A DNA stretch of 43,864 nucleotides. It comes from a virus (lineage: Duplodnaviria; Heunggongvirae; Uroviricota; Caudoviricetes). Under the pieces are notes generated by a model. The model saw nothing but the letters and a program-made list of their open reading frames with translations. It had not been told where the DNA came from and searched no databases. The stretch lies in the IMG/VR virus record IMGVR_UViG_2711768005_000008, one strand, 5' to 3'. This document shows positions 10,680-42,156 of the stretch, one piece after another (the first letter of the stretch is position 1; each line of letters starts with the position of its first letter). A program made the translations under genes and the position numbers.

Positions 10680-11180
10680 ATGCCAAAACTCCCCGCACCC
10701 CTGCGTAAAAAGCTGATTGCCCTTGTTCTGGCCGGAGCCGGGACGTTCACCATTGCCACGCACTACACCGGCTACTGGGAAGGGAAAGAAAACACCACGT
10801 ACATTGATCCCACCGGCACCCCCACCATCTGTTACGGCCATACCGGCCCGGATGTGAAACCGGGGATGACAAAAACTGATGAAGAGTGTCTGGAGCTGCT
10901 GGAAAAGGACATGAAATGGGCCTTTGCGGCTATCGATCGTCATGTTCAGGTGCCGCTTACCCGTGGTCAGACGGTGGCGCTGGCCTCCTGGATTTTCTGG
11001 GCCGGTGAAACGAACTTTCGCAACTCCACGCTCCTGCGCCTTATCAATGCCGGGCAGATGCCCGCGTCCTGTAAGCAGTATATCCGCTGGATTTATTCAA
11101 AGGGGGTAAAACTCCCCGGTCTTGAGGCCCGCCGTTCGGCGGATGAATGGTTATGTCGTTACGATTTGCCGAAAGTCTGA
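10680..11180 (+). CDS. lys: Endolysin, T4-lysozyme-like (GH24), with probable N-terminal SAR (signal-arrest-release) domain
   Basis: Gly/Ala-rich weakly hydrophobic N-terminus LIALVLAGAGTFTIA followed by the E-x8-D-x5-T catalytic triad (YWEGKENTTYIDPTGTPT). Confidence 0.75.
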   Translation: MPKLPAPLRKKLIALVLAGAGTFTIATHYTGYWEGKENTTYIDPTGTPTICYGHTGPDVKPGMTKTDEECLELLEKDMKWAFAAIDRHVQVPLTRGQTVALASWIFWAGETNFRNSTLLRLINAGQMPASCKQYIRWIYSKGVKLPGLEARRSADEWLCRYDLPKV

Positions 11181-34179: not shown

Positions 34180-34752
34180 ATGCTGATTGGGTATATCAGG
34201 GTGTCAACAAATGACCAGAATACGGCGCTACAAAGAAATGCGCTGGAATGTGCAGGATGTGAGCTGTTTTTCGAAGACAGAATAAGCGGTAAGACAAGGG
34301 AGCGTCCCGGACTTAAACGCGCATTAAAGCGACTCCGGCCAGGGGATACCCTGCTGGTCTGGAAACTGGATCGCCTTGGACGCAGTATGCAGCACCTTGT
34401 CCTTTTAACAGAAGAACTCCGGCAACGCGGCGTTAACTTCCGCAGCATTACGGACAATATTGATACATCCACTCCCATGGGACGTTTCTTTTTCCATATA
34501 ATGGGCGCGCTGGCGGAAATGGAGCGGGAACTCATTATTGAACGTACACGCGCGGGTCTTGCTGCTGCCCGTGCTCAGGGGCGTCATGGCGGCAGACCTC
34601 AGAAACTGACAGAGAAAGAGCGGGAGCAAATCGCCCGTTTGCTGGCTAATGGCGAGTCCCGTAAACAAATCGCACTGATATTTGATATTGGCCTTTCCAC
34701 CCTTTATCGTTATTTTCCTGCCTCACCAGCTCCGTCACCAAAAGTACCGTGA
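34180..34752 (+). CDS. gin: Serine DNA invertase (Gin/Hin/Cin/Pin family)
   Basis: MLIGYIRVSTNDQNT...LLVWKLDRLGRS...C-terminal HTH GESRKQIALIFDIGLSTLYRY; classic resolvase/invertase N-terminal catalytic motif. Confidence 0.9.
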   Translation: MLIGYIRVSTNDQNTALQRNALECAGCELFFEDRISGKTRERPGLKRALKRLRPGDTLLVWKLDRLGRSMQHLVLLTEELRQRGVNFRSITDNIDTSTPMGRFFFHIMGALAEMERELIIERTRAGLAAARAQGRHGGRPQKLTEKEREQIARLLANGESRKQIALIFDIGLSTLYRYFPASPAPSPKVP

Positions 34753-34837
34753 CGCTTTTTTGAATTTCCGCAAAACACATATTTTTCAGCGGTCGCTATT
34801 CTGACTCTGTTTAATTCAGAAACAGGCAGAAAAGACG

Positions 34838-36892
34838 ATGTCAGACTCCAAGTGGAAAATGCTCTCCGCCATGCCCGGAGAGTTTTCAGTCAAGGTTGCC
34901 GGTGGCACGGTGGCATTTATTGAAAGCCCTTTCCGCCCTTCGGGTAATAAAGGGGGGATCACCTTCGCAGACTGCGTGATCCGCTTCAGCACGAAAGAGC
35001 CATTATGGGTAATGCCGGTATCCGGTAATCCCAGTGCAGAAATCACCAGTTCAGGCGTGACTGGCATCATTCCAATCACATCTGACGTGGCCGGAACGCT
35101 CACGCCCTCCGACTGGAATGCACCGGATAACGCCGGGCCTTCCGGTAGCACGAATGGCAGCAGTTCAGAGCCGGAATATTACTTTGTTGTCATTCTCGCG
35201 GGTCAGTCAAATGGCATGGCCTACGGCGAGGGGCTGCCGTTACCGGATTCGTTTGACCGCCCGGACCCACGCATTAAGCAACTGGCACGCCGCAGTACGG
35301 TAACGCCCAACGGTACGTCGTGTACATACAACGACATCATTCCGGCAGACCACTGCCTGCATGATGTTCAGGATATGAGCGGGATAAACCACCCGAAAGC
35401 TGATCTGGCAAAAGGCCAGTACGGGACTGTCGGTCAGGGGTTGCATATTGCCAAAAAACTGCTTCCCTATATCCCACAGAATGCCGGGATACTTCTGGTG
35501 CCCTGTTGTCGTGGCGGGTCAGCATTCACCACTGGAGCCGACGGCTCATTCAGTGAGGCCAGCGGTGCTTCCGCTGATTCTTCACGCTGGGGGGCCGGTA
35601 AACCTCTGTATCAGGACCTGGTAAGCCGCACCAAAGTCGCGCTGGCGAAAAACCCGAAAAACAAACTTCTGGCTGTGGTCTGGATGCAGGGAGAGGCAGA
35701 CCTTGCCTCAGGAAGCCAGCAGCATAATAGTTTATTCACGGCCATGGTTCAGCAGTTCAGAACTGACCTGGCTCCGCTTGCTGCGCAGTGCGTGAGTGGA
35801 AATGCCACCACGGTGCCGTGGATTTGCGGTGATACCACGTATTACTGGAAAAACGCTGGCACCGATAAATATGAGGCAGTATACGGTGGCTACAAAGGCA
35901 AGGAAGCACAGAAAATTTTCTTTGTACCGTTCCTGACGGATGAGAATGGACAGAGCACGCCAACGAATGCTCCGGCGGAAGACCCGGATATTGTGGCTGT
36001 CGGGTATTACGGTGCAGCATCCCGAACCCAGGGCAGTTTTGTTTCGACACAGCGTGACAGCCATTTCAGCTCATGGGCACGCAGGGGCGTCATTTCAGAC
36101 CGTCTGGCCTCAGCTATTATGCTCCATGCAGGGCGCACGGCTGAACTGATGCGTGGGCAGACCGTGACACCACCGGATGAGAAGCCGTCACCTGATACAC
36201 CATCAAAACCGTCCACGCCACCCGCAGACACCACGACGATGAGTACGCTATTTGCTTACCGGGCATCTGAGTCTGAAGGACGGTTGACACCACAGGGTTG
36301 GGCTGCCGGAGGTGGCAAGGCTCAAATCGTGGATGATGCCGGAGCCAGCGGGGGTAAGGCAATGAAACTGACCAAGGAAACAGGAAGAGCCCCCTGGTAC
36401 CTTGAGCATGATGCTGGTAATGGTGCGGACCTGCTGGGTAAAGGTGGTCTTGTCAGTTGTCGTTTTAAACTCGATGGCGCGCTTACGGCTAATCAGTACG
36501 CACTGGCGCTGTACTGGCCGGTTTCTGCCCTGCCGCAAGGGGTTACTCTGGAAGGAAATGCCGGTCATAACCTGCTGGCATCGTTCTACGTACAGAGCGA
36601 TGCCACAGACCTTAACGTGATGTATCACAAAGGAAACACGGCGCAGAACACGAAGCTGGGGTCATTCGGCGCATTTAATAACGAATGGCATACGCTGGGC
36701 TTCCGTTTTGCCGGTAACAACAGTATTGAGGTGACGCCGGTCATTGATGGTAAGGACGGGACACCATTCATGCTGTCGCAGTCTCCGGTCGGCACGTTTA
36801 CGGCAGACAAGTTGCGCGTGACCGATATCACTAAAAATGCGACTTACCCGGTACTGATTGACAGTATCGTGGTGGAAGTGAATAACGCGTAA
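34838..36892 (+). CDS. SASA/SGNH-hydrolase-family carbohydrate esterase (sialate O-acetylesterase-like, NanS-p-like) with N- and C-terminal extra domains
   Basis: GQSNGMAYG nucleophile motif (residue ~125), VVWMQGEADL block, later DSH; 684 aa; sits between gin and com/mom, where Mu has no gene. Confidence 0.6.
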   Translation: MSDSKWKMLSAMPGEFSVKVAGGTVAFIESPFRPSGNKGGITFADCVIRFSTKEPLWVMPVSGNPSAEITSSGVTGIIPITSDVAGTLTPSDWNAPDNAGPSGSTNGSSSEPEYYFVVILAGQSNGMAYGEGLPLPDSFDRPDPRIKQLARRSTVTPNGTSCTYNDIIPADHCLHDVQDMSGINHPKADLAKGQYGTVGQGLHIAKKLLPYIPQNAGILLVPCCRGGSAFTTGADGSFSEASGASADSSRWGAGKPLYQDLVSRTKVALAKNPKNKLLAVVWMQGEADLASGSQQHNSLFTAMVQQFRTDLAPLAAQCVSGNATTVPWICGDTTYYWKNAGTDKYEAVYGGYKGKEAQKIFFVPFLTDENGQSTPTNAPAEDPDIVAVGYYGAASRTQGSFVSTQRDSHFSSWARRGVISDRLASAIMLHAGRTAELMRGQTVTPPDEKPSPDTPSKPSTPPADTTTMSTLFAYRASESEGRLTPQGWAAGGGKAQIVDDAGASGGKAMKLTKETGRAPWYLEHDAGNGADLLGKGGLVSCRFKLDGALTANQYALALYWPVSALPQGVTLEGNAGHNLLASFYVQSDATDLNVMYHKGNTAQNTKLGSFGAFNNEWHTLGFRFAGNNSIEVTPVIDGKDGTPFMLSQSPVGTFTADKLRVTDITKNATYPVLIDSIVVEVNNA

Positions 36893-36907
36893 GCAGGATA
36901 AAAAAAT

Positions 36908-36940
36908 GCCGCCGGTAAGGGAAAACAAGAAACCGGCGGC
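36908..36940 (-). terminator. Stem-loop GCCGCCGGT-N15-ACCGGCGGC, with T-run on the minus strand (A-run upstream on plus)
   Basis: Perfect 9-bp stem; likely terminates minus-strand transcription and possibly the esterase transcript. Confidence 0.4.
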
Positions 36941-37024
36941 AAAAAGATCGTTATATCCAAAGCAAAAAATGCAGTGCACCTTTTTACCTAACAGATATTA
37001 CCGGTGTCAACACCATGTCAATAA

Positions 37025-37219
37025 TTGGGAGGGATAATGACATTTTTACAGCTTATTTTATTGTATTTCTGCACGGCAGTATGTGCGTTATATCTGGTGA
37101 GTGGTGGTTATAAGGCCATCAGAAATTATGTTCGCCGCAAAATTGAGGACGCAGCAGCTGAAAAACTCAGTAAAACAGCGCAGGTAACTCCGCTCCCAAA
37201 AGACCCGACCCAGCCCTGA
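37025..37219 (+). CDS. hypothetical small membrane protein
   Basis: Hydrophobic N-terminus FLQLILLYFCTAVCALYLV. Confidence 0.3.
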   Translation: MGGIMTFLQLILLYFCTAVCALYLVSGGYKAIRNYVRRKIEDAAAEKLSKTAQVTPLPKDPTQP

Positions 37220-37254
37220 TTGCAGGGCTTTATTCCCGCATAAGGAGGATATAC

Positions 37255-37509
37255 ATGCCAGAAATTAAAGGCACCGTCACTGAAGACCTGGTAAAACAGG
37301 CACTGTATTCCGGTGAAGTAAATAAGTTGCTGAAAGCGCAGGTCCGCAAGGATTTTGAGGCACAAATCGACACTTACGTTGATGAAGTGCTGGCAAAACT
37401 TATTGGGCCAGCAGTTGCGGCCAGTGATGCTGATAATGAGCCGAAAACCGACGCGCAGCCAGAGCAACCAGACCCGGCTCAGCCCGGAACTGACAGTACC
37501 ATGATGTAA
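37255..37509 (+). CDS. hypothetical protein, acidic/proline-rich C-terminus
   Basis: ORF with AGGAGG RBS. Confidence 0.4.
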   Translation: MPEIKGTVTEDLVKQALYSGEVNKLLKAQVRKDFEAQIDTYVDEVLAKLIGPAVAASDADNEPKTDAQPEQPDPAQPGTDSTMM

Positions 37510-37676
37510 CAATACAAACCGGTGGTGTCCTCTGCCGGTTTGACACTAATGAAAACATCTTTGCCGCTATCCAGCCATATGTAATCGCTGGATAGTATTT
37601 CGTATTCAGAAATATAGCTGCTTATGGAGCAGTCAATCCTGCTTCCCCATCCGGGCAGGCAAATGAACCGGTATCA

Positions 37677-37970
37677 TTAGTCCGATTCACGCTTTTGTAG
37701 AATCGTTCCCAGAATGCTATACAGCTCATTAGCCTGTTGCTCCATCATTGAGACGGAGGCTATACGGTGCAAAGTGATTTCAGGAGGTGGCACACCTCCA
37801 TCTTCTTGCTGTGGAGGAAAAACATAAGATTTAATAAAAAAGTTGAAGCATATGAACTCTCCCGCACTCGAACTGTATTTGCAGGCATCTGAATAATCGG
37901 AAAAATAATCATTATAGATTTCCGCATTTTCAATCATTTTTCGATTTCTCGTCGTTACATGATTGTCCAT
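37677..37970 (-). CDS. hypothetical protein (minus strand, AT-rich - likely horizontally acquired)
   Basis: 97-aa ORF, lower GC than the surrounding phage genes. Confidence 0.35.
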   Translation of the reverse strand: MDNHVTTRNRKMIENAEIYNDYFSDYSDACKYSSSAGEFICFNFFIKSYVFPPQQEDGGVPPPEITLHRIASVSMMEQQANELYSILGTILQKRESD

Positions 37971-38093
37971 AGCAGCCTCTTACGCTGGCAATTAACCAAT
38001 TGACTTCTATAAATTAGTTGATTTGTTTGCTTTGCGGTATTCAAATGTACAATCATTCAGCACTTATGCGTTACAGCACCGTTTAAAATTAGT

Positions 38094-38179
38094 GATCAAA
38101 CTCATAAATTTTCGCTAATGACATTTCGTGTTATTTGTTGTATCAATTAAATAAATCAAATCGATCGTTTTTGTCGATC
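38094..38179. promoter_or_regulatory. Cluster of three GATC (Dam) sites upstream of com/mom (38094-38097, 38163-38166, 38176-38179)
   Basis: Resembles the Dam/OxyR-controlled mom promoter region of Mu. Confidence 0.4.
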
Positions 38180-38226
38180 GATTGAGTGATAAAGATATCA
38201 ACAACAAAGCAGGAGGTTATGCGGCC

Positions 38227-38427
38227 ATGTATCGAAACATACGGTGCCGACATTGTAACAAGCTACTGGCACGAGCCAGCTTCAGTTATCTGGAAGTTAA
38301 ATGTCCGCGCTGTAAAACCCTCAATCAAATCACATCTCAGAGCGCCACAGAGCACCCCACATACACAAGGAAATCCTGTCGTGGGGAACAGAAAGCAAGT
38401 TACATCCCGTATCATCAGCACGCCTGA
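38227..38427 (+). CDS. com: Com-like zinc-finger translational activator of mom
   Basis: [10 protein letters not shown]...EVKCPRCK with the same C4 arrangement as Mu Com; overlaps the mom 5' end. Confidence 0.7.
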
Positions 38428-39336: not shown

Positions 39337-39795
39337 ATGAACGACATCTCTTCTGACGACATCTTCCTGCTGAAACAGCGCCTTGCCGAACGTCAGTTGA
39401 AAACGAAACCGCTGCTGAAATCCCTGGAAAGCTGGCTGCGTGAAAAGATGAAAACCCTGTCGCGACACTCAGAACTGGCGAAAGCGTTCGCATATGCCCT
39501 GAACCAGTGGCCGGCGCTGACGTACTATGCAGATGATGGCTGGGCTGAGGCGGACAATAACATCGCTGAAAATGCGTTGCGGATGGTCAGTCTGGGCCGC
39601 AAAAACTACCTGTTCTTCGGTTCGGATCATGGAGGAGAGCGGGGAGCGCTGCTGTACAGCCTGATCGGGACGTGCAAACTGAACGGAGTGGAGCCAGAAA
39701 GCTACCTCCGCTATGTCCTTGACGTCATAGCCGACTGGCCGATAAACCGGGTCGGCGAACTGCTCCCCTGGCGCGTAGCACTGCCGACTGAATAA
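39337..39795 (+). pseudogene. tnpC: IS66-family transposase TnpC, C-terminal fragment only (N-terminal ~two-thirds absent)
   Basis: ...MKTLSRHS.LAKAFAY.L.QW.....Y...GW.E.DNNIAENALR....GRKN.LF.GSD.GGE..A.LYSLIGTC.LN.VEPE..LRYV...I.DWP.NRV..LLPW matches the IS66 TnpC C-terminus. Confidence 0.75.
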
Positions 39796-39832: not shown

Positions 39833-41021
39833 GGTAAACACCCCGGAAGTGGTGATGCACACTGTTGCTGATGTGATGACAGGAAACGATGGTGAATACT
39901 GTTTCCATGCGCGGACTGGAAAATATGGTGTGTATCTGAAACCGGGCTGGCACAACGAGTACAACGTTGGCGACATTGCTGTATACGACGACTCAAAGCC
40001 CGGCACGCTGAATGACTTTCTGATTGCTCCTGATGAGGGCGACCTGAAACCGGATGTCGTCAAACGCTTTGAGGAAATGGTGGCGCAGGCGCAGCAGAGC
40101 GCCGGGGCCGCAGCCGGAAACGCACAGCAGACGGCGCAGGATGTGGCGGCAGCCGCAGGTTATGCCCGCGCAGCAGAGCAGGCCAAAAATGACATTGATG
40201 CTGCGCTGACCGGCACTCTGAAAACGGCTAACCATCTGTCTGAAATCGCAGCAGCAGGCGAAAAGGCACAACAGAAGTCCCGGGATAATCTGGGGCTGAA
40301 AAGTGCGGCCACGATGGAAGCACAGAGCGACATTTACGACCGGACAAAAGGCCGTCTGGCGATACCCGGCGCATTCGGCTTTGGGTGTGCTTTTCTGCCT
40401 GAAGATGTTATCCGTTTTGACACTAAGAGTGATTTCCTGGCCTGGGTAAGGAATGCGCTGCCAGGTGAATATTCCGTTGCTGGCCCCTACGACATCATCA
40501 TACCCGACACACGGTTTGAAGGGGTGCTCAGCATCCGGTGGACTGATGCACGCCCTGAGACAACAGAACCGAGGTACAGAGCCAAATCCCTTACTTTTTA
40601 CGGCATTAACGGCCCCATTTATCACACCCGCTACTGCTACTGGCCCATATCCAGACTGACTGGCTGGGTGAAAATAAATATAACCACAGAAGATATTATT
40701 TACAGAATCGTGGCGAGCTCTGTCTGCAACAGATGGGGAGACCCTGACATTGGCGGGCTGATTATTGCTGCGTACCAGGGAGAAGCTGACGGTGATAAAG
40801 TCATCAGACTTGTCAGGGGGCAGTCATACAGAGGCTCACGACTGGGACCGGTGGGGATTTCAGTGCCCAGTACTCCCACCGGAACGTATATAGCATCCCC
40901 ACAATTTTTCATTACGGGATGTTCAGAGCATTCATTACCGGGGTCATATAGCGCCCTGTCCGGGGTGCCGGATGCTCATGTCTCTGGCGCAATGCCCGGG
41001 CTTTTTATTCGCACATCGTGA
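39833..41021 (+). pseudogene. Tail fibre gene, 3' portion (5' part displaced upstream by the IS66/Mu-like insertion)
   Basis: Frame is open from the IS boundary with no plausible native start; Ala/Gln-rich shaft region then a C-terminal globular part; followed by a putative tail-fibre assembly gene. Confidence 0.55.
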
Positions 41022-41031
41022 GGAATGCACC

Positions 41032-41595
41032 GTGGAAATTAAAAAAATCATTAATCCCCGTTATACCGAAAGTGGCGCAGTAGACTGTGACGTTTTTTTT
41101 GACGACAGGGACCAGGCAGTCCCCTACACAGCCACCGCTGATGATGTCGCACCGACGGGTCAGCGAATCTGGCAGGAACTGCAAAGTGGCAAATGGGGTG
41201 AGATAGCCCCATTCACTGTGACACCAGAAATGCTGGAAGCGGCCAGAGAGGCCAGACGTCAGGAAATTGAAGCATGGCGCACAGAACAGGAGGCGAAGCC
41301 GTTCACGTTTGAATGGAATGGTCGTATCTGGAATGCTGGCCCCGACTCACTGGGCCGCCTGTCCCCGGTAGTCATGCTGGCAAAATCTGTCACAGCACAA
41401 ACGCATATGGCGTGGGGTGATGCCGATAATCAGCAGGTGAAACTGTCGATGCCGGAACTGGAAGAACTGGCGGCAGCAATGGTGCAGGCGCAGGTCGATC
41501 GCAACGATGAGATTTATCGCCGTCAGCGTGAAATGAAAGAGGAGCTGAGTGGTCTGGAGGATTTGGGAACAATTAGAGCGTTTGATGTTACGTAA
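41032..41595 (+). CDS. Putative tail fibre assembly / tail-fibre-associated protein (start ambiguous: 40972, 40978 or GTG 41032)
   Basis: Position immediately downstream of the tail fibre; AGGAA before GTG 41032. Confidence 0.45.
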   Translation: MEIKKIINPRYTESGAVDCDVFFDDRDQAVPYTATADDVAPTGQRIWQELQSGKWGEIAPFTVTPEMLEAAREARRQEIEAWRTEQEAKPFTFEWNGRIWNAGPDSLGRLSPVVMLAKSVTAQTHMAWGDADNQQVKLSMPELEELAAAMVQAQVDRNDEIYRRQREMKEELSGLEDLGTIRAFDVT

Positions 41596-41793: not shown

Positions 41794-42156
41794 TGGTGGA
41801 GCTGGCGGGAGTTGAACCCGCGTCCGAAATTCCTACATCCTCGGTACTACATGCTTAGTCAGTCTTTACATTCGCTTGCCAGCTGCGGACGGACACGCCA
41901 CTAACAAACTAGCCTGATTAAGTTTTAACGCTTCAACCCCAGGCAGGGCTTCCACGCGATCTCTTTTGGGTTTGACCTCTCTTGATCCCCGTCCTAAGAG
42001 CGGAGGCTAGGGAGAGAGGGCTCTAAGCAGGTTATTAAGCTGCTAAAGCGTAGTTTTCGTCGTTTGCGACTATTTTTTGCGGCTTTTTACGAGGCCAACC
42101 GCCCCTCGGCATGCACCTTGGGTTTCGCAAATCCCGTCGAATCCAGAATCAGCCCC
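41794..42156 (-). ncRNA. ssrA: tmRNA (SsrA), 363 nt
   Basis: 5' GGGGCTGATTCTGGATTCGACGGG, tag ORF GCAAACGACGAAAACTACGCTTTAGCAGCTTAA (ANDENYALAA-stop), 3' end ...GGGTTCAACTCCCGCCAGCTCCACCA. Confidence 0.95.

Follow-up and report, generated by a model that had tools for sequence, protein, structure and literature searches.

A NanS-p esterase module with a putative small RNA gene between gin and the mom operator of a Mu-like Escherichia coli prophage

We analysed a 43,864-nucleotide stretch of viral DNA (IMG/VR record IMGVR_UViG_2711768005_000008; hereafter, the window), concentrating on positions 36893-38180, which lie between a sialate esterase gene and com. A first-pass annotation had described these positions as an AT-rich accessory island of three orphan small genes, bounded by a strong hairpin and carrying morons for superinfection exclusion, defence or anti-defence. 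We consider it likely that the region is a composite: the distal portion of an esterase module (36893-37509), a further open reading frame (ORF3) in a variable slot, and the mom operator of the phage backbone. The window is a Mu-like (Sp18-type) Escherichia coli prophage, with a Mor/C-type activator, GemA, a phage lysozyme, baseplate and tail-fibre genes, gin, com and mom. What it holds at this place looks largely ordinary: a NanS-p cassette with a small RNA (sRNA) gene of the PasA/PasC type, set in a Mu-like backbone, plus one ORFan.

We propose that positions 36893-37509 are the distal part of a mobile four-part module, consisting of a sialate esterase (plus strand), a probable sRNA (minus strand), a DUF1378 protein (plus strand) and a DUF826 protein (plus strand). 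This module is common to the Sp18-type Mu-like lineage and to lambdoid and Shiga toxin (Stx) prophages, and is placed here between gin and the mom operator.

An esterase module shared by two phage backbones

All three small ORFs that the first-pass annotation reported are present in the ORF listing, at 37025-37219 (ORF1), 37255-37509 (ORF2) and 37677-37970 on the minus strand (ORF3). The term orphan holds for ORF3, which has no family match, but not for the other two, to which profile searches assigned families. ORF1 matches PF07125 (DUF1378) over residues 1-58 of 60 (E = 9e-32, 109.4 bits against a cut-off of 25) and also phrog_494. ORF2 matches PF05696 (DUF826) over residues 1-57 (E = 6e-16, 58.7 bits against a cut-off of 25) and phrog_311 over its full length. 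Both PHROG families are of unknown function. The start of ORF1 is most likely the ATG at 37037 and not the TTG at 37025, because a GGGAGGG Shine-Dalgarno sequence lies upstream of the ATG, the Pfam match runs from residue 1 and RefSeq uses the same start. The hydropathy of DUF1378 predicts a single membrane-spanning segment followed by a basic tail. DUF826 has a conserved N-terminal half, a variable tail rich in proline and acidic residues, and a conserved QPG..MM end. Both proteins are under purifying selection, within and between backbones; the ratio of nonsynonymous to synonymous substitution rates (dN/dS) is 0.14-0.32 for DUF1378 and 0.09-0.40 for DUF826.

Homologue searches with DUF1378 and DUF826 returned stand-alone proteins only, from Escherichia, Shigella and Citrobacter, and no fusion that might give a clue. 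NCBIfam and PDB sequence searches with the three small proteins yielded nothing useful; their matches to MnmH and a haemagglutinin were set aside as chance. Between the DUF1378 and DUF826 genes, at 37230-37243, lies the only match in the window to TTAT-N6-ATAA, which we take to be the pattern of the Mu C-protein site. It was rejected as a C-box because it is at chance level (29% of shuffles) and because the pattern is absent from the phage's own mom promoter.

The small genes and the esterase gene occur together in both backbones. For a neighbour survey, 112 phage contigs were anchored on DUF1378/DUF826 and their neighbours identified by tblastn. In this sample of redundant E. coli prophages, taken from the best 80 matches per search, so that figures of 100% overstate independence, the esterase C-terminal domain lay immediately 5' of DUF1378 in 106/106 loci with enough upstream flank, and DUF826 started 200-230 bp after the start of DUF1378 in 108/108 loci with enough downstream flank. 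The context was lambdoid, with a holin next, in 60 of the 112 contigs and Mu-like, with com/mom next, in 28. In contigs anchored on the esterase, both small genes were found in 67/67 and the sRNA unit in 66/67.

Individual phages show the same arrangement. In RefSeq, an O157:H7 lambdoid prophage has esterase-DUF1378-DUF826 followed by a class II holin and a lysozyme, and Stx phage POCJ13 has esterase-DUF1378-DUF826-holin, located after stxAB. ORFs for DUF826 and DUF1378 have been described between nanS-p and S in Stx2a phages (PMC10462455). The Mu-like prophages Sp18, O91, M3 and FORC_069 carry gin-esterase-DUF1378-DUF826-slot-com-mom. Sp18 of E. coli O157:H7 Sakai shares the gene order of the window, but its small proteins are about 72% identical, its sRNA body is different and its slot holds a 154-aa zinc-ribbon-like protein instead of ORF3. 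The Stx/lambdoid NanS-p region (933W L0105, with small ORFs between nanS-p and holin S) has the same order and spacing of esterase, antisense hairpin unit, DUF1378 and DUF826, with DNA identity of 69-87% from about 35166 to 37170. Unlike that region, which is part of a Q-dependent late operon before the holin, the module of the window belongs to a transposable prophage of the Mu-like kind, where gin and the mom operator flank it.

The esterase itself is of the NanS-p type and is predicted to have 9-O-acetyl sialate esterase activity. Its catalytic domain (PF03629, SASA/SGNH) matches NanS (PDB 3pt5, E = 1.8e-117, residues 110-428), and its C-terminal jelly-roll or DUF6645 domain (PF20350, E = 7e-68) matches NanS-p (PDB 6yp6, E = 7e-98, residues 469-683); both domains are homologous to those of the lambdoid enzymes. 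The N-terminus is different. The esterase of phage phi24B is attached to the capsid by its DUF1737 domain (bioRxiv 10.64898/2026.04.10.717836); that preprint does not mention either small protein. DUF1737 is absent from the esterase of the window, as Pfam gave no match in residues 1-110, and tblastn with the lambdoid N-terminal domain found chance-level matches only in the window. Homology to lambdoid NanS-p starts near 35166, at about residue 110. In place of DUF1737, residues 1 to about 105 (34838-35152) form an unrelated domain that is conserved only among Mu-like prophages, at 55-96% identity. A single-sequence AlphaFold2 (AF2) prediction of this domain gave no usable model (mean predicted local distance difference test, pLDDT, of 33). 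A literature search found no paper connecting NanS-p with Mu-like phages.

The type of N-terminal domain tracks the backbone: 47 lambdoid loci have the lambdoid type and 25 Mu-like loci have the Mu type, with three clear exceptions, two of them from one genome. By analogy with DUF1737, the domain may be a backbone-specific anchor to the Mu virion. The exceptions look like recombinants within the esterase gene. They are L016 and L093, both from IMG/VR genome 2617270962, and L080. One chimera joins a lambdoid N-terminal domain to a Mu-like right end (ORF3-com-mom), and a reciprocal chimera has a Mu-type N-terminal domain followed by lambdoid DUF826-holin-lysozyme. These genes suggest that a Mu-like and a lambdoid prophage recombined by way of the esterase gene that they share, and possibly that the chromosome was rearranged.

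The intercistronic hairpin and a putative small RNA gene

The strong hairpin that had been noted after the esterase gene is real. It has a folding free energy (ΔG) of about -23 kcal/mol (z = -3.6), and 0/200 shuffled sequences were as stable. It does not mark the border of an island, because it is internal to the conserved esterase cassette. Seven A residues precede the hairpin on the plus strand and no T-run follows it; it therefore has the shape of an intrinsic terminator on the minus strand. Of 46 distinct esterase-DUF1378 spacers, drawn from both backbones, 43 keep an A-run of 5-8 residues and an xCCGCC...GGCGGy stem, and none of the 46 has a T-run in the 8 nt after the stem on the plus strand. 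The pairs of the stem vary in type; one position is G:C, A:T or G:T, and another G:C, C:G, A:T or G:T. The hairpin is thus conserved with compensatory changes. In 42/46 of the distinct variants, the minus strand carries TTGAC[AT]-N17/18-TAAAA(A), then a variable body of 70-100 nt, then the terminator.

The minus strand from 36974 to 36900 probably encodes an sRNA of about 75 nt. Its predicted fold consists of two small hairpins, U-rich stretches and the terminator (ΔG = -23, z = -4.2). The comparison on which we rely is with PasA and PasC of enteropathogenic E. coli (EPEC), two Hfq-dependent sRNAs verified by northern blot and encoded on the minus strand right behind SASA esterase genes (PMC8550237 Table S6); an 'esterase-PasA-holin-lysozyme' arrangement has also been described (bioRxiv 10.64898/2026.05.13.724894). 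In EPEC E2348/69, PasC (locus L128, 2610 to 2533) is exactly the element of A7 plus hairpin that adjoins the esterase stop codon, and PasA (locus L127, 2600 to 2516) is the second tandem copy of a promoter-body-terminator unit. Like them, the unit of the window adjoins the esterase stop on the opposite strand, is about 75-85 nt long, has a TTGACA promoter and carries a terminator made of a GC hairpin and U7; it aligns with PasA and PasC at the promoter and terminator. It differs in that its body and seed are unrelated and cannot be aligned with theirs, its terminator stem has another sequence, and its host element is Mu-like; moreover, it is predicted from sequence. Both sRNAs are named EcOnc51/52 in enterohaemorrhagic E. 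coli (EHEC), and our literature search found no mention of EcOnc51 or EcOnc52. A further difference from the lambdoid NanS-p loci is that STnc100/PasD is not found upstream of the esterase in the window. At E2348/69 prophage PP2 (L127, 2367-2600), two tandem units follow the esterase, and the minor 236-nt form reported for PasA ends at the terminator of the first copy.

Some variation within the Mu-like lineage also concerns this unit. The Mu-like prophages of strains JE86-ST02, M1 and M3 are 96-99% identical to the window from position 172 of 36893-38180 onward, but have a different spacer and sRNA body (compared over 36893-37063). The sRNA unit appears to have been exchanged as a cassette, because its body differs between otherwise near-identical prophages.

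The Rfam scan of the region found no family at its gathering score. A weak full-length match to Esr41 (RF02676) at 36898-36980 on the minus strand is on the correct strand and at the correct site, and it spans the terminator (CCGCC...GGCGG) together with a U-rich stretch; at the corresponding position, a lambdoid contig gave a similar match of 31.8 bits. Esr41 is encoded in SpLE1 (PMC5286369). An Rfam match to IS102 at the mom operator reflects the GATC palindrome there and was discarded.

We propose that the hairpin would serve as the Rho-independent terminator of the sRNA of about 75 nt, transcribed from a TTGACA-18-TAAAAA promoter divergent to DUF1378. By analogy with PasA, PasC and Esr41, the sRNA would be made in the lysogen, bind Hfq through its U-rich stretches and terminator, and regulate host mRNAs in trans. 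It would also be fully complementary to the intercistronic RNA between esterase and DUF1378. Because the hairpin has no U-tract on the plus strand, transcription could read through it, and esterase, DUF1378 and DUF826 could be co-transcribed.

Borders, variable slot and mom operator

The borders of the accessory DNA are not 36893 and 38180, as the first-pass annotation had placed them. In phage Mu, the gap between the gin stop and the com start is 94 bp, compared with 3.4 kb in the prophage of the window; the insert therefore begins at 34753, right after the gin stop and 2.1 kb further left, and includes the esterase. In SfMu, the gin-mom PCR product is 1.5 kb (PMC4406740). On the right, homology among Mu-like prophages with other slot alleles restarts only at about 38132. 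Relative to Mu, the accessory insert is thus about 3.4 kb, from 34753 to about 38132.

The suggestion that the region is visibly AT-rich was borne out. The GC content of 36893-38180 is 0.426 compared with a prophage mean of 0.539 (standard deviation 0.048) in segments of 1288 bp, and only 0.9% of such segments are as low. It is uneven (0.50 in DUF826, 0.40 in ORF3 and 0.33 in the spacer between ORF3 and com), with the low values concentrated in ORF3 and that spacer; the other place with such AT-rich DNA is the early regulatory region near 350-1900. Identical copies of 36893-38180 were found in 14 complete E. coli genomes, and partial matches in 350/5426. Megablast of the same positions against the sequenced-phage collection gave no match; a search of that collection in distant mode found the esterase part only, together with two Stx-phage records that contain an inserted Mu-like phage.

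From 38133 to 38226, the sequence aligns with the gin-com spacer of phage Mu, with clustered GATC sites immediately 5' of com and collinear with those of Mu. Within it, AATCGATCG...GATCGATT is invariant in Mu, Sp18, O91, FORC_069 and the window. We take this stretch to be the Dam/OxyR-controlled mom operator. The last 50 bp or so of the region that had been called an island (38133-38181) are therefore mom operator and belong to the backbone. The right end as a whole, with gin, the GATC-containing operator, com and mom, is conserved and collinear with phage Mu, from which the window differs by its 3.4 kb of cargo.

Between DUF826 and the operator lies the slot, and its content differs among Mu-like prophages. 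It holds ORF3 in 9 of 28 Mu-like loci, an unrelated gene for 154 aa, often fragmented, in 18, and neither in one, while DUF1378 and DUF826 are present in 28/28. The proposal that the region carries moron cargo that varies among Mu-like prophages was therefore partly right: relative to Mu and SfMu, the stretch from gin to com is accessory DNA, and the ORF3 slot varies, but DUF1378 and DUF826 are conserved within the lineage as part of the esterase module. The alternative slot gene (Sp18 L004 5068-5532 and its equivalents) encodes a C-terminal CPAC...CPAC zinc-ribbon-like motif; Pfam gave no match, and many prophages have a frameshifted or fragmented copy.

ORF3, where present, is always on the minus strand between DUF826 and com. 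It has no match in Pfam, PHROG, NCBIfam or PADLOC. Among 5.8 billion proteins, its relatives make up 14 clusters; every one is at least 79% identical and comes from E. coli or Shigella, and an exhaustive HMMER scan of 1.84 billion (1.84e9) representatives found nothing further. The AF2 model has a pLDDT of 62.5, and fold searches with it gave nothing usable. ORF3 most likely starts at the long start, 37970, because an AAGAGG Shine-Dalgarno sequence precedes it and the internal Met chosen by RefSeq is a Thr in the 79%-identical allele. Its promoter is presumably in the AT-rich spacer 37971-38132, where weak promoter-consensus matches only were found. Downstream of ORF3, the hairpin at 37515-37542 lacks a U-run when read on the plus strand, has a weak one (UAUUGUU) when read on the minus strand, and may terminate ORF3 transcription. 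Judging by its distribution and the variable minus-strand slot, ORF3, a lineage-restricted ORFan, is a plausible moron and would be the only part of the region that behaves like one.

Table 1. Features of the insert and its flanks (positions in the window)
Feature	Coordinates	Strand	Description
gin (invertase)	34180-34752		Backbone gene left of the insert
NanS-p-type sialate O-acetylesterase	34838-36892	+	684 aa; first gene of the module; Pfam SASA and DUF6645, phrog_143
Predicted sRNA gene, PasA/PasC kind	36900-36974	-	About 75 nt; 5' end by alignment to the mapped PasC 5' end; 3' end is U7
GC-rich hairpin	36907-36941	-	10-bp stem; U7 (36906-36900) follows on the minus strand
Candidate sigma-70 promoter of the sRNA	36981-37010	-	-35 TTGACA 37010-37005, 18-nt spacer, -10 TAAAAA 36986-36981
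DUF1378 protein (ORF1)	37037-37219	+	60 aa, isoelectric point (pI) 9.3; predicted transmembrane helix at residues ~3-24, then basic amphipathic tail
DUF826 protein (ORF2)	37255-37509	+	84 aa, acidic (pI 4.2); strong AAGGAGG Shine-Dalgarno
Second hairpin	37515-37542		After the DUF826 stop; ΔG = -16.7, z = -3.25 (+ strand)
ORF3	37677-37970	-	97 aa, acidic, aromatic-rich; slot between DUF826 and mom operator
AT-rich spacer	37971-38132		GC about 0.33; specific to the ORF3 slot allele
Mu-type mom regulatory region	38133-38226	+	Backbone; GATC-containing palindrome 38159-38183
com	38227-38427		ATG at 38227; 66 aa, intact; length as in other Mu-like prophages
mom	ends 39118		Backbone gene right of com

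Several features of the right flank can be added. In strain JE86-ST05 (NZ_AP022815), which has an otherwise identical copy, com is annotated as frameshifted. Homology to the insert annotated in LC727881 puts the Mu-like right end at about 39246, and further right a tmRNA (ssrA) gene (Rfam, 296 bits) occupies 41794-42156 (minus strand). Between them, 39337-39795 and 39849-41595 contain a C-terminal fragment of an IS66-like transposase and lambdoid tail-fibre remnants (phage_tail_N, DUF4376). Because ssrA, the transposase fragment and the tail-fibre remnants are found to the right of the Mu-like end, the Mu-like prophage seems to sit inside a decayed, ssrA-integrated prophage.

Alternative readings and significance

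Apart from the redundancy of the samples, several points weigh against the composite that we favour, and most of them concern the sRNA. The -10 element, TAAAAA, is imperfect. Alignment shows the sRNA body to be unlike PasA or PasC. The Esr41 match, at 22.2 bits (E = 0.2), is far below the gathering score of 102, and membership of that family was rejected. A covariance model built from lambdoid type II variants matched nothing in the window beyond the terminator (15.6 bits, E = 0.33) and detected neither PasA nor PasC significantly. The link to the validated sRNAs is thus one of position, strand and promoter/terminator architecture only, and our claim is limited to the same kind of gene at the same place; because the model detected none of the three significantly, we do not claim membership of a Pas family at the sequence level. 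Furthermore, EPEC E2348/69 prophages PP2 and PP5 carry the esterase and sRNA without DUF1378 and DUF826; the esterase thus does not require the pair. The substitutions in ORF3 fall 13/9/16 by codon position, with a DNA identity similar to that of the upstream spacer. Finally, none of the tools used gave a functional hint for DUF1378, DUF826 or ORF3.

It is very unlikely, in our view, that the region is a self-contained moron island of three orphan genes, bounded by the hairpin and devoted to superinfection exclusion, defence or anti-defence. Its AT-richness and its absence from Mu and SfMu would fit such an island, as would the variable slot and the nature of ORF3, which is small and acidic and adjoins the anti-restriction gene mom. 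However, ORF1 and ORF2 have assignable families, and in two unrelated backbones they invariably accompany the esterase; the hairpin is a conserved internal element and the insert starts well to the left. A defence role is also unsupported by PADLOC, which gave no match for the esterase, DUF1378 or ORF3 and one marginal partial match of DUF826 to PbeC (E = 0.0076); nothing ties DUF1378 or DUF826 to defence. The island is thus largely refuted for ORF1 and ORF2. As for ORF3, it may not be a gene. A chance ORF in AT-rich regulatory DNA upstream of mom would explain why its homologues are near-identical copies only, why its model is of moderate quality, and why its third-position bias is weak and its divergence like that of the flanking spacer. 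The support for coding is moderate, in that the 79%-identical allele keeps the frame open, the sole indel is in frame, dN/dS is 0.40 (Fisher p = 0.016), a good Shine-Dalgarno sequence is in place, and other prophages have a different gene in the same slot and orientation. We therefore regard a chance ORF as unlikely.

The hairpin could alternatively act on the plus strand, as a 3' stabiliser or processing site of the esterase mRNA, with no minus-strand sRNA in the variant of the window. Its position 15 nt after the esterase stop codon would suit this role, and so would the failure of the covariance models to tie the sRNA body to validated sRNAs. We find it quite improbable, since the invariant A-run before the stem makes a U-run on the minus strand only and no variant has a T-run on the plus strand; 42/46 variants, with bodies that differ, have a perfect TTGACA at conserved spacing upstream on the minus strand; and PasC maps to exactly this element. 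A different alternative concerns DUF1378 and DUF826, which might modulate the timing of lysis on a pathway of signal-arrest-release (SAR) endolysin and pinholin, their link to the esterase being incidental. In lambdoid prophages the pair lies immediately 5' of the class II holin and the lysozyme, and DUF1378 is a small protein predicted to span the membrane once; Mu has an endolysin of the SAR type, and the lysozyme of the window (10680-11180) is 34% identical to the lambdoid one, making a common target conceivable. Yet in Mu-like prophages the pair is 26 kb from the lysis genes and still under purifying selection, a class II holin homologue was not found in the window, and the EPEC prophages retain holin and lysozyme without the pair. 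A role in lysis timing is thus unlikely.

Returning to the composite, we prefer, with low confidence, to regard DUF1378 and DUF826 as accessory factors of the esterase module. DUF1378 would cross the inner membrane once and have a basic helix in the cytoplasm, and DUF826 would be acidic and soluble; the two are inherited as an invariant pair. A tentative proposal is that they form a membrane-associated pair that acts late, in the release or deployment of the signal-less esterase, rather than in defence. A broader scheme is a long shot. Here, the module would be self-contained and move between unrelated phage types, with the N-terminal domain of its esterase swapped for docking to the virion (DUF1737 for lambdoid capsids, the domain of about 105 aa for Mu-like particles), DUF1378 and DUF826 would deploy the enzyme, the sRNA body would be swapped by recombination and diversify fast, and ORF3 would be a small acidic anti-restriction or anti-defence protein that cooperates with mom.

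These results do not overturn current understanding, but they correct the annotation of a common E. coli prophage region: apparently anonymous morons are mainly a known mucus-sugar esterase module. A putative regulatory RNA gene in this module escapes protein-based annotation. The DUF1378/DUF826 pair and the backbone-specific N-terminal domain of the esterase are testable leads on how NanS-p is deployed, and Mu-like and lambdoid prophages could recombine through the homology that the shared cassette offers. Provided that the sRNA is expressed, the carriers of Hfq-type regulators of host genes would extend from lambdoid phages to Mu-like prophages, Sp18 of O157:H7 among them.

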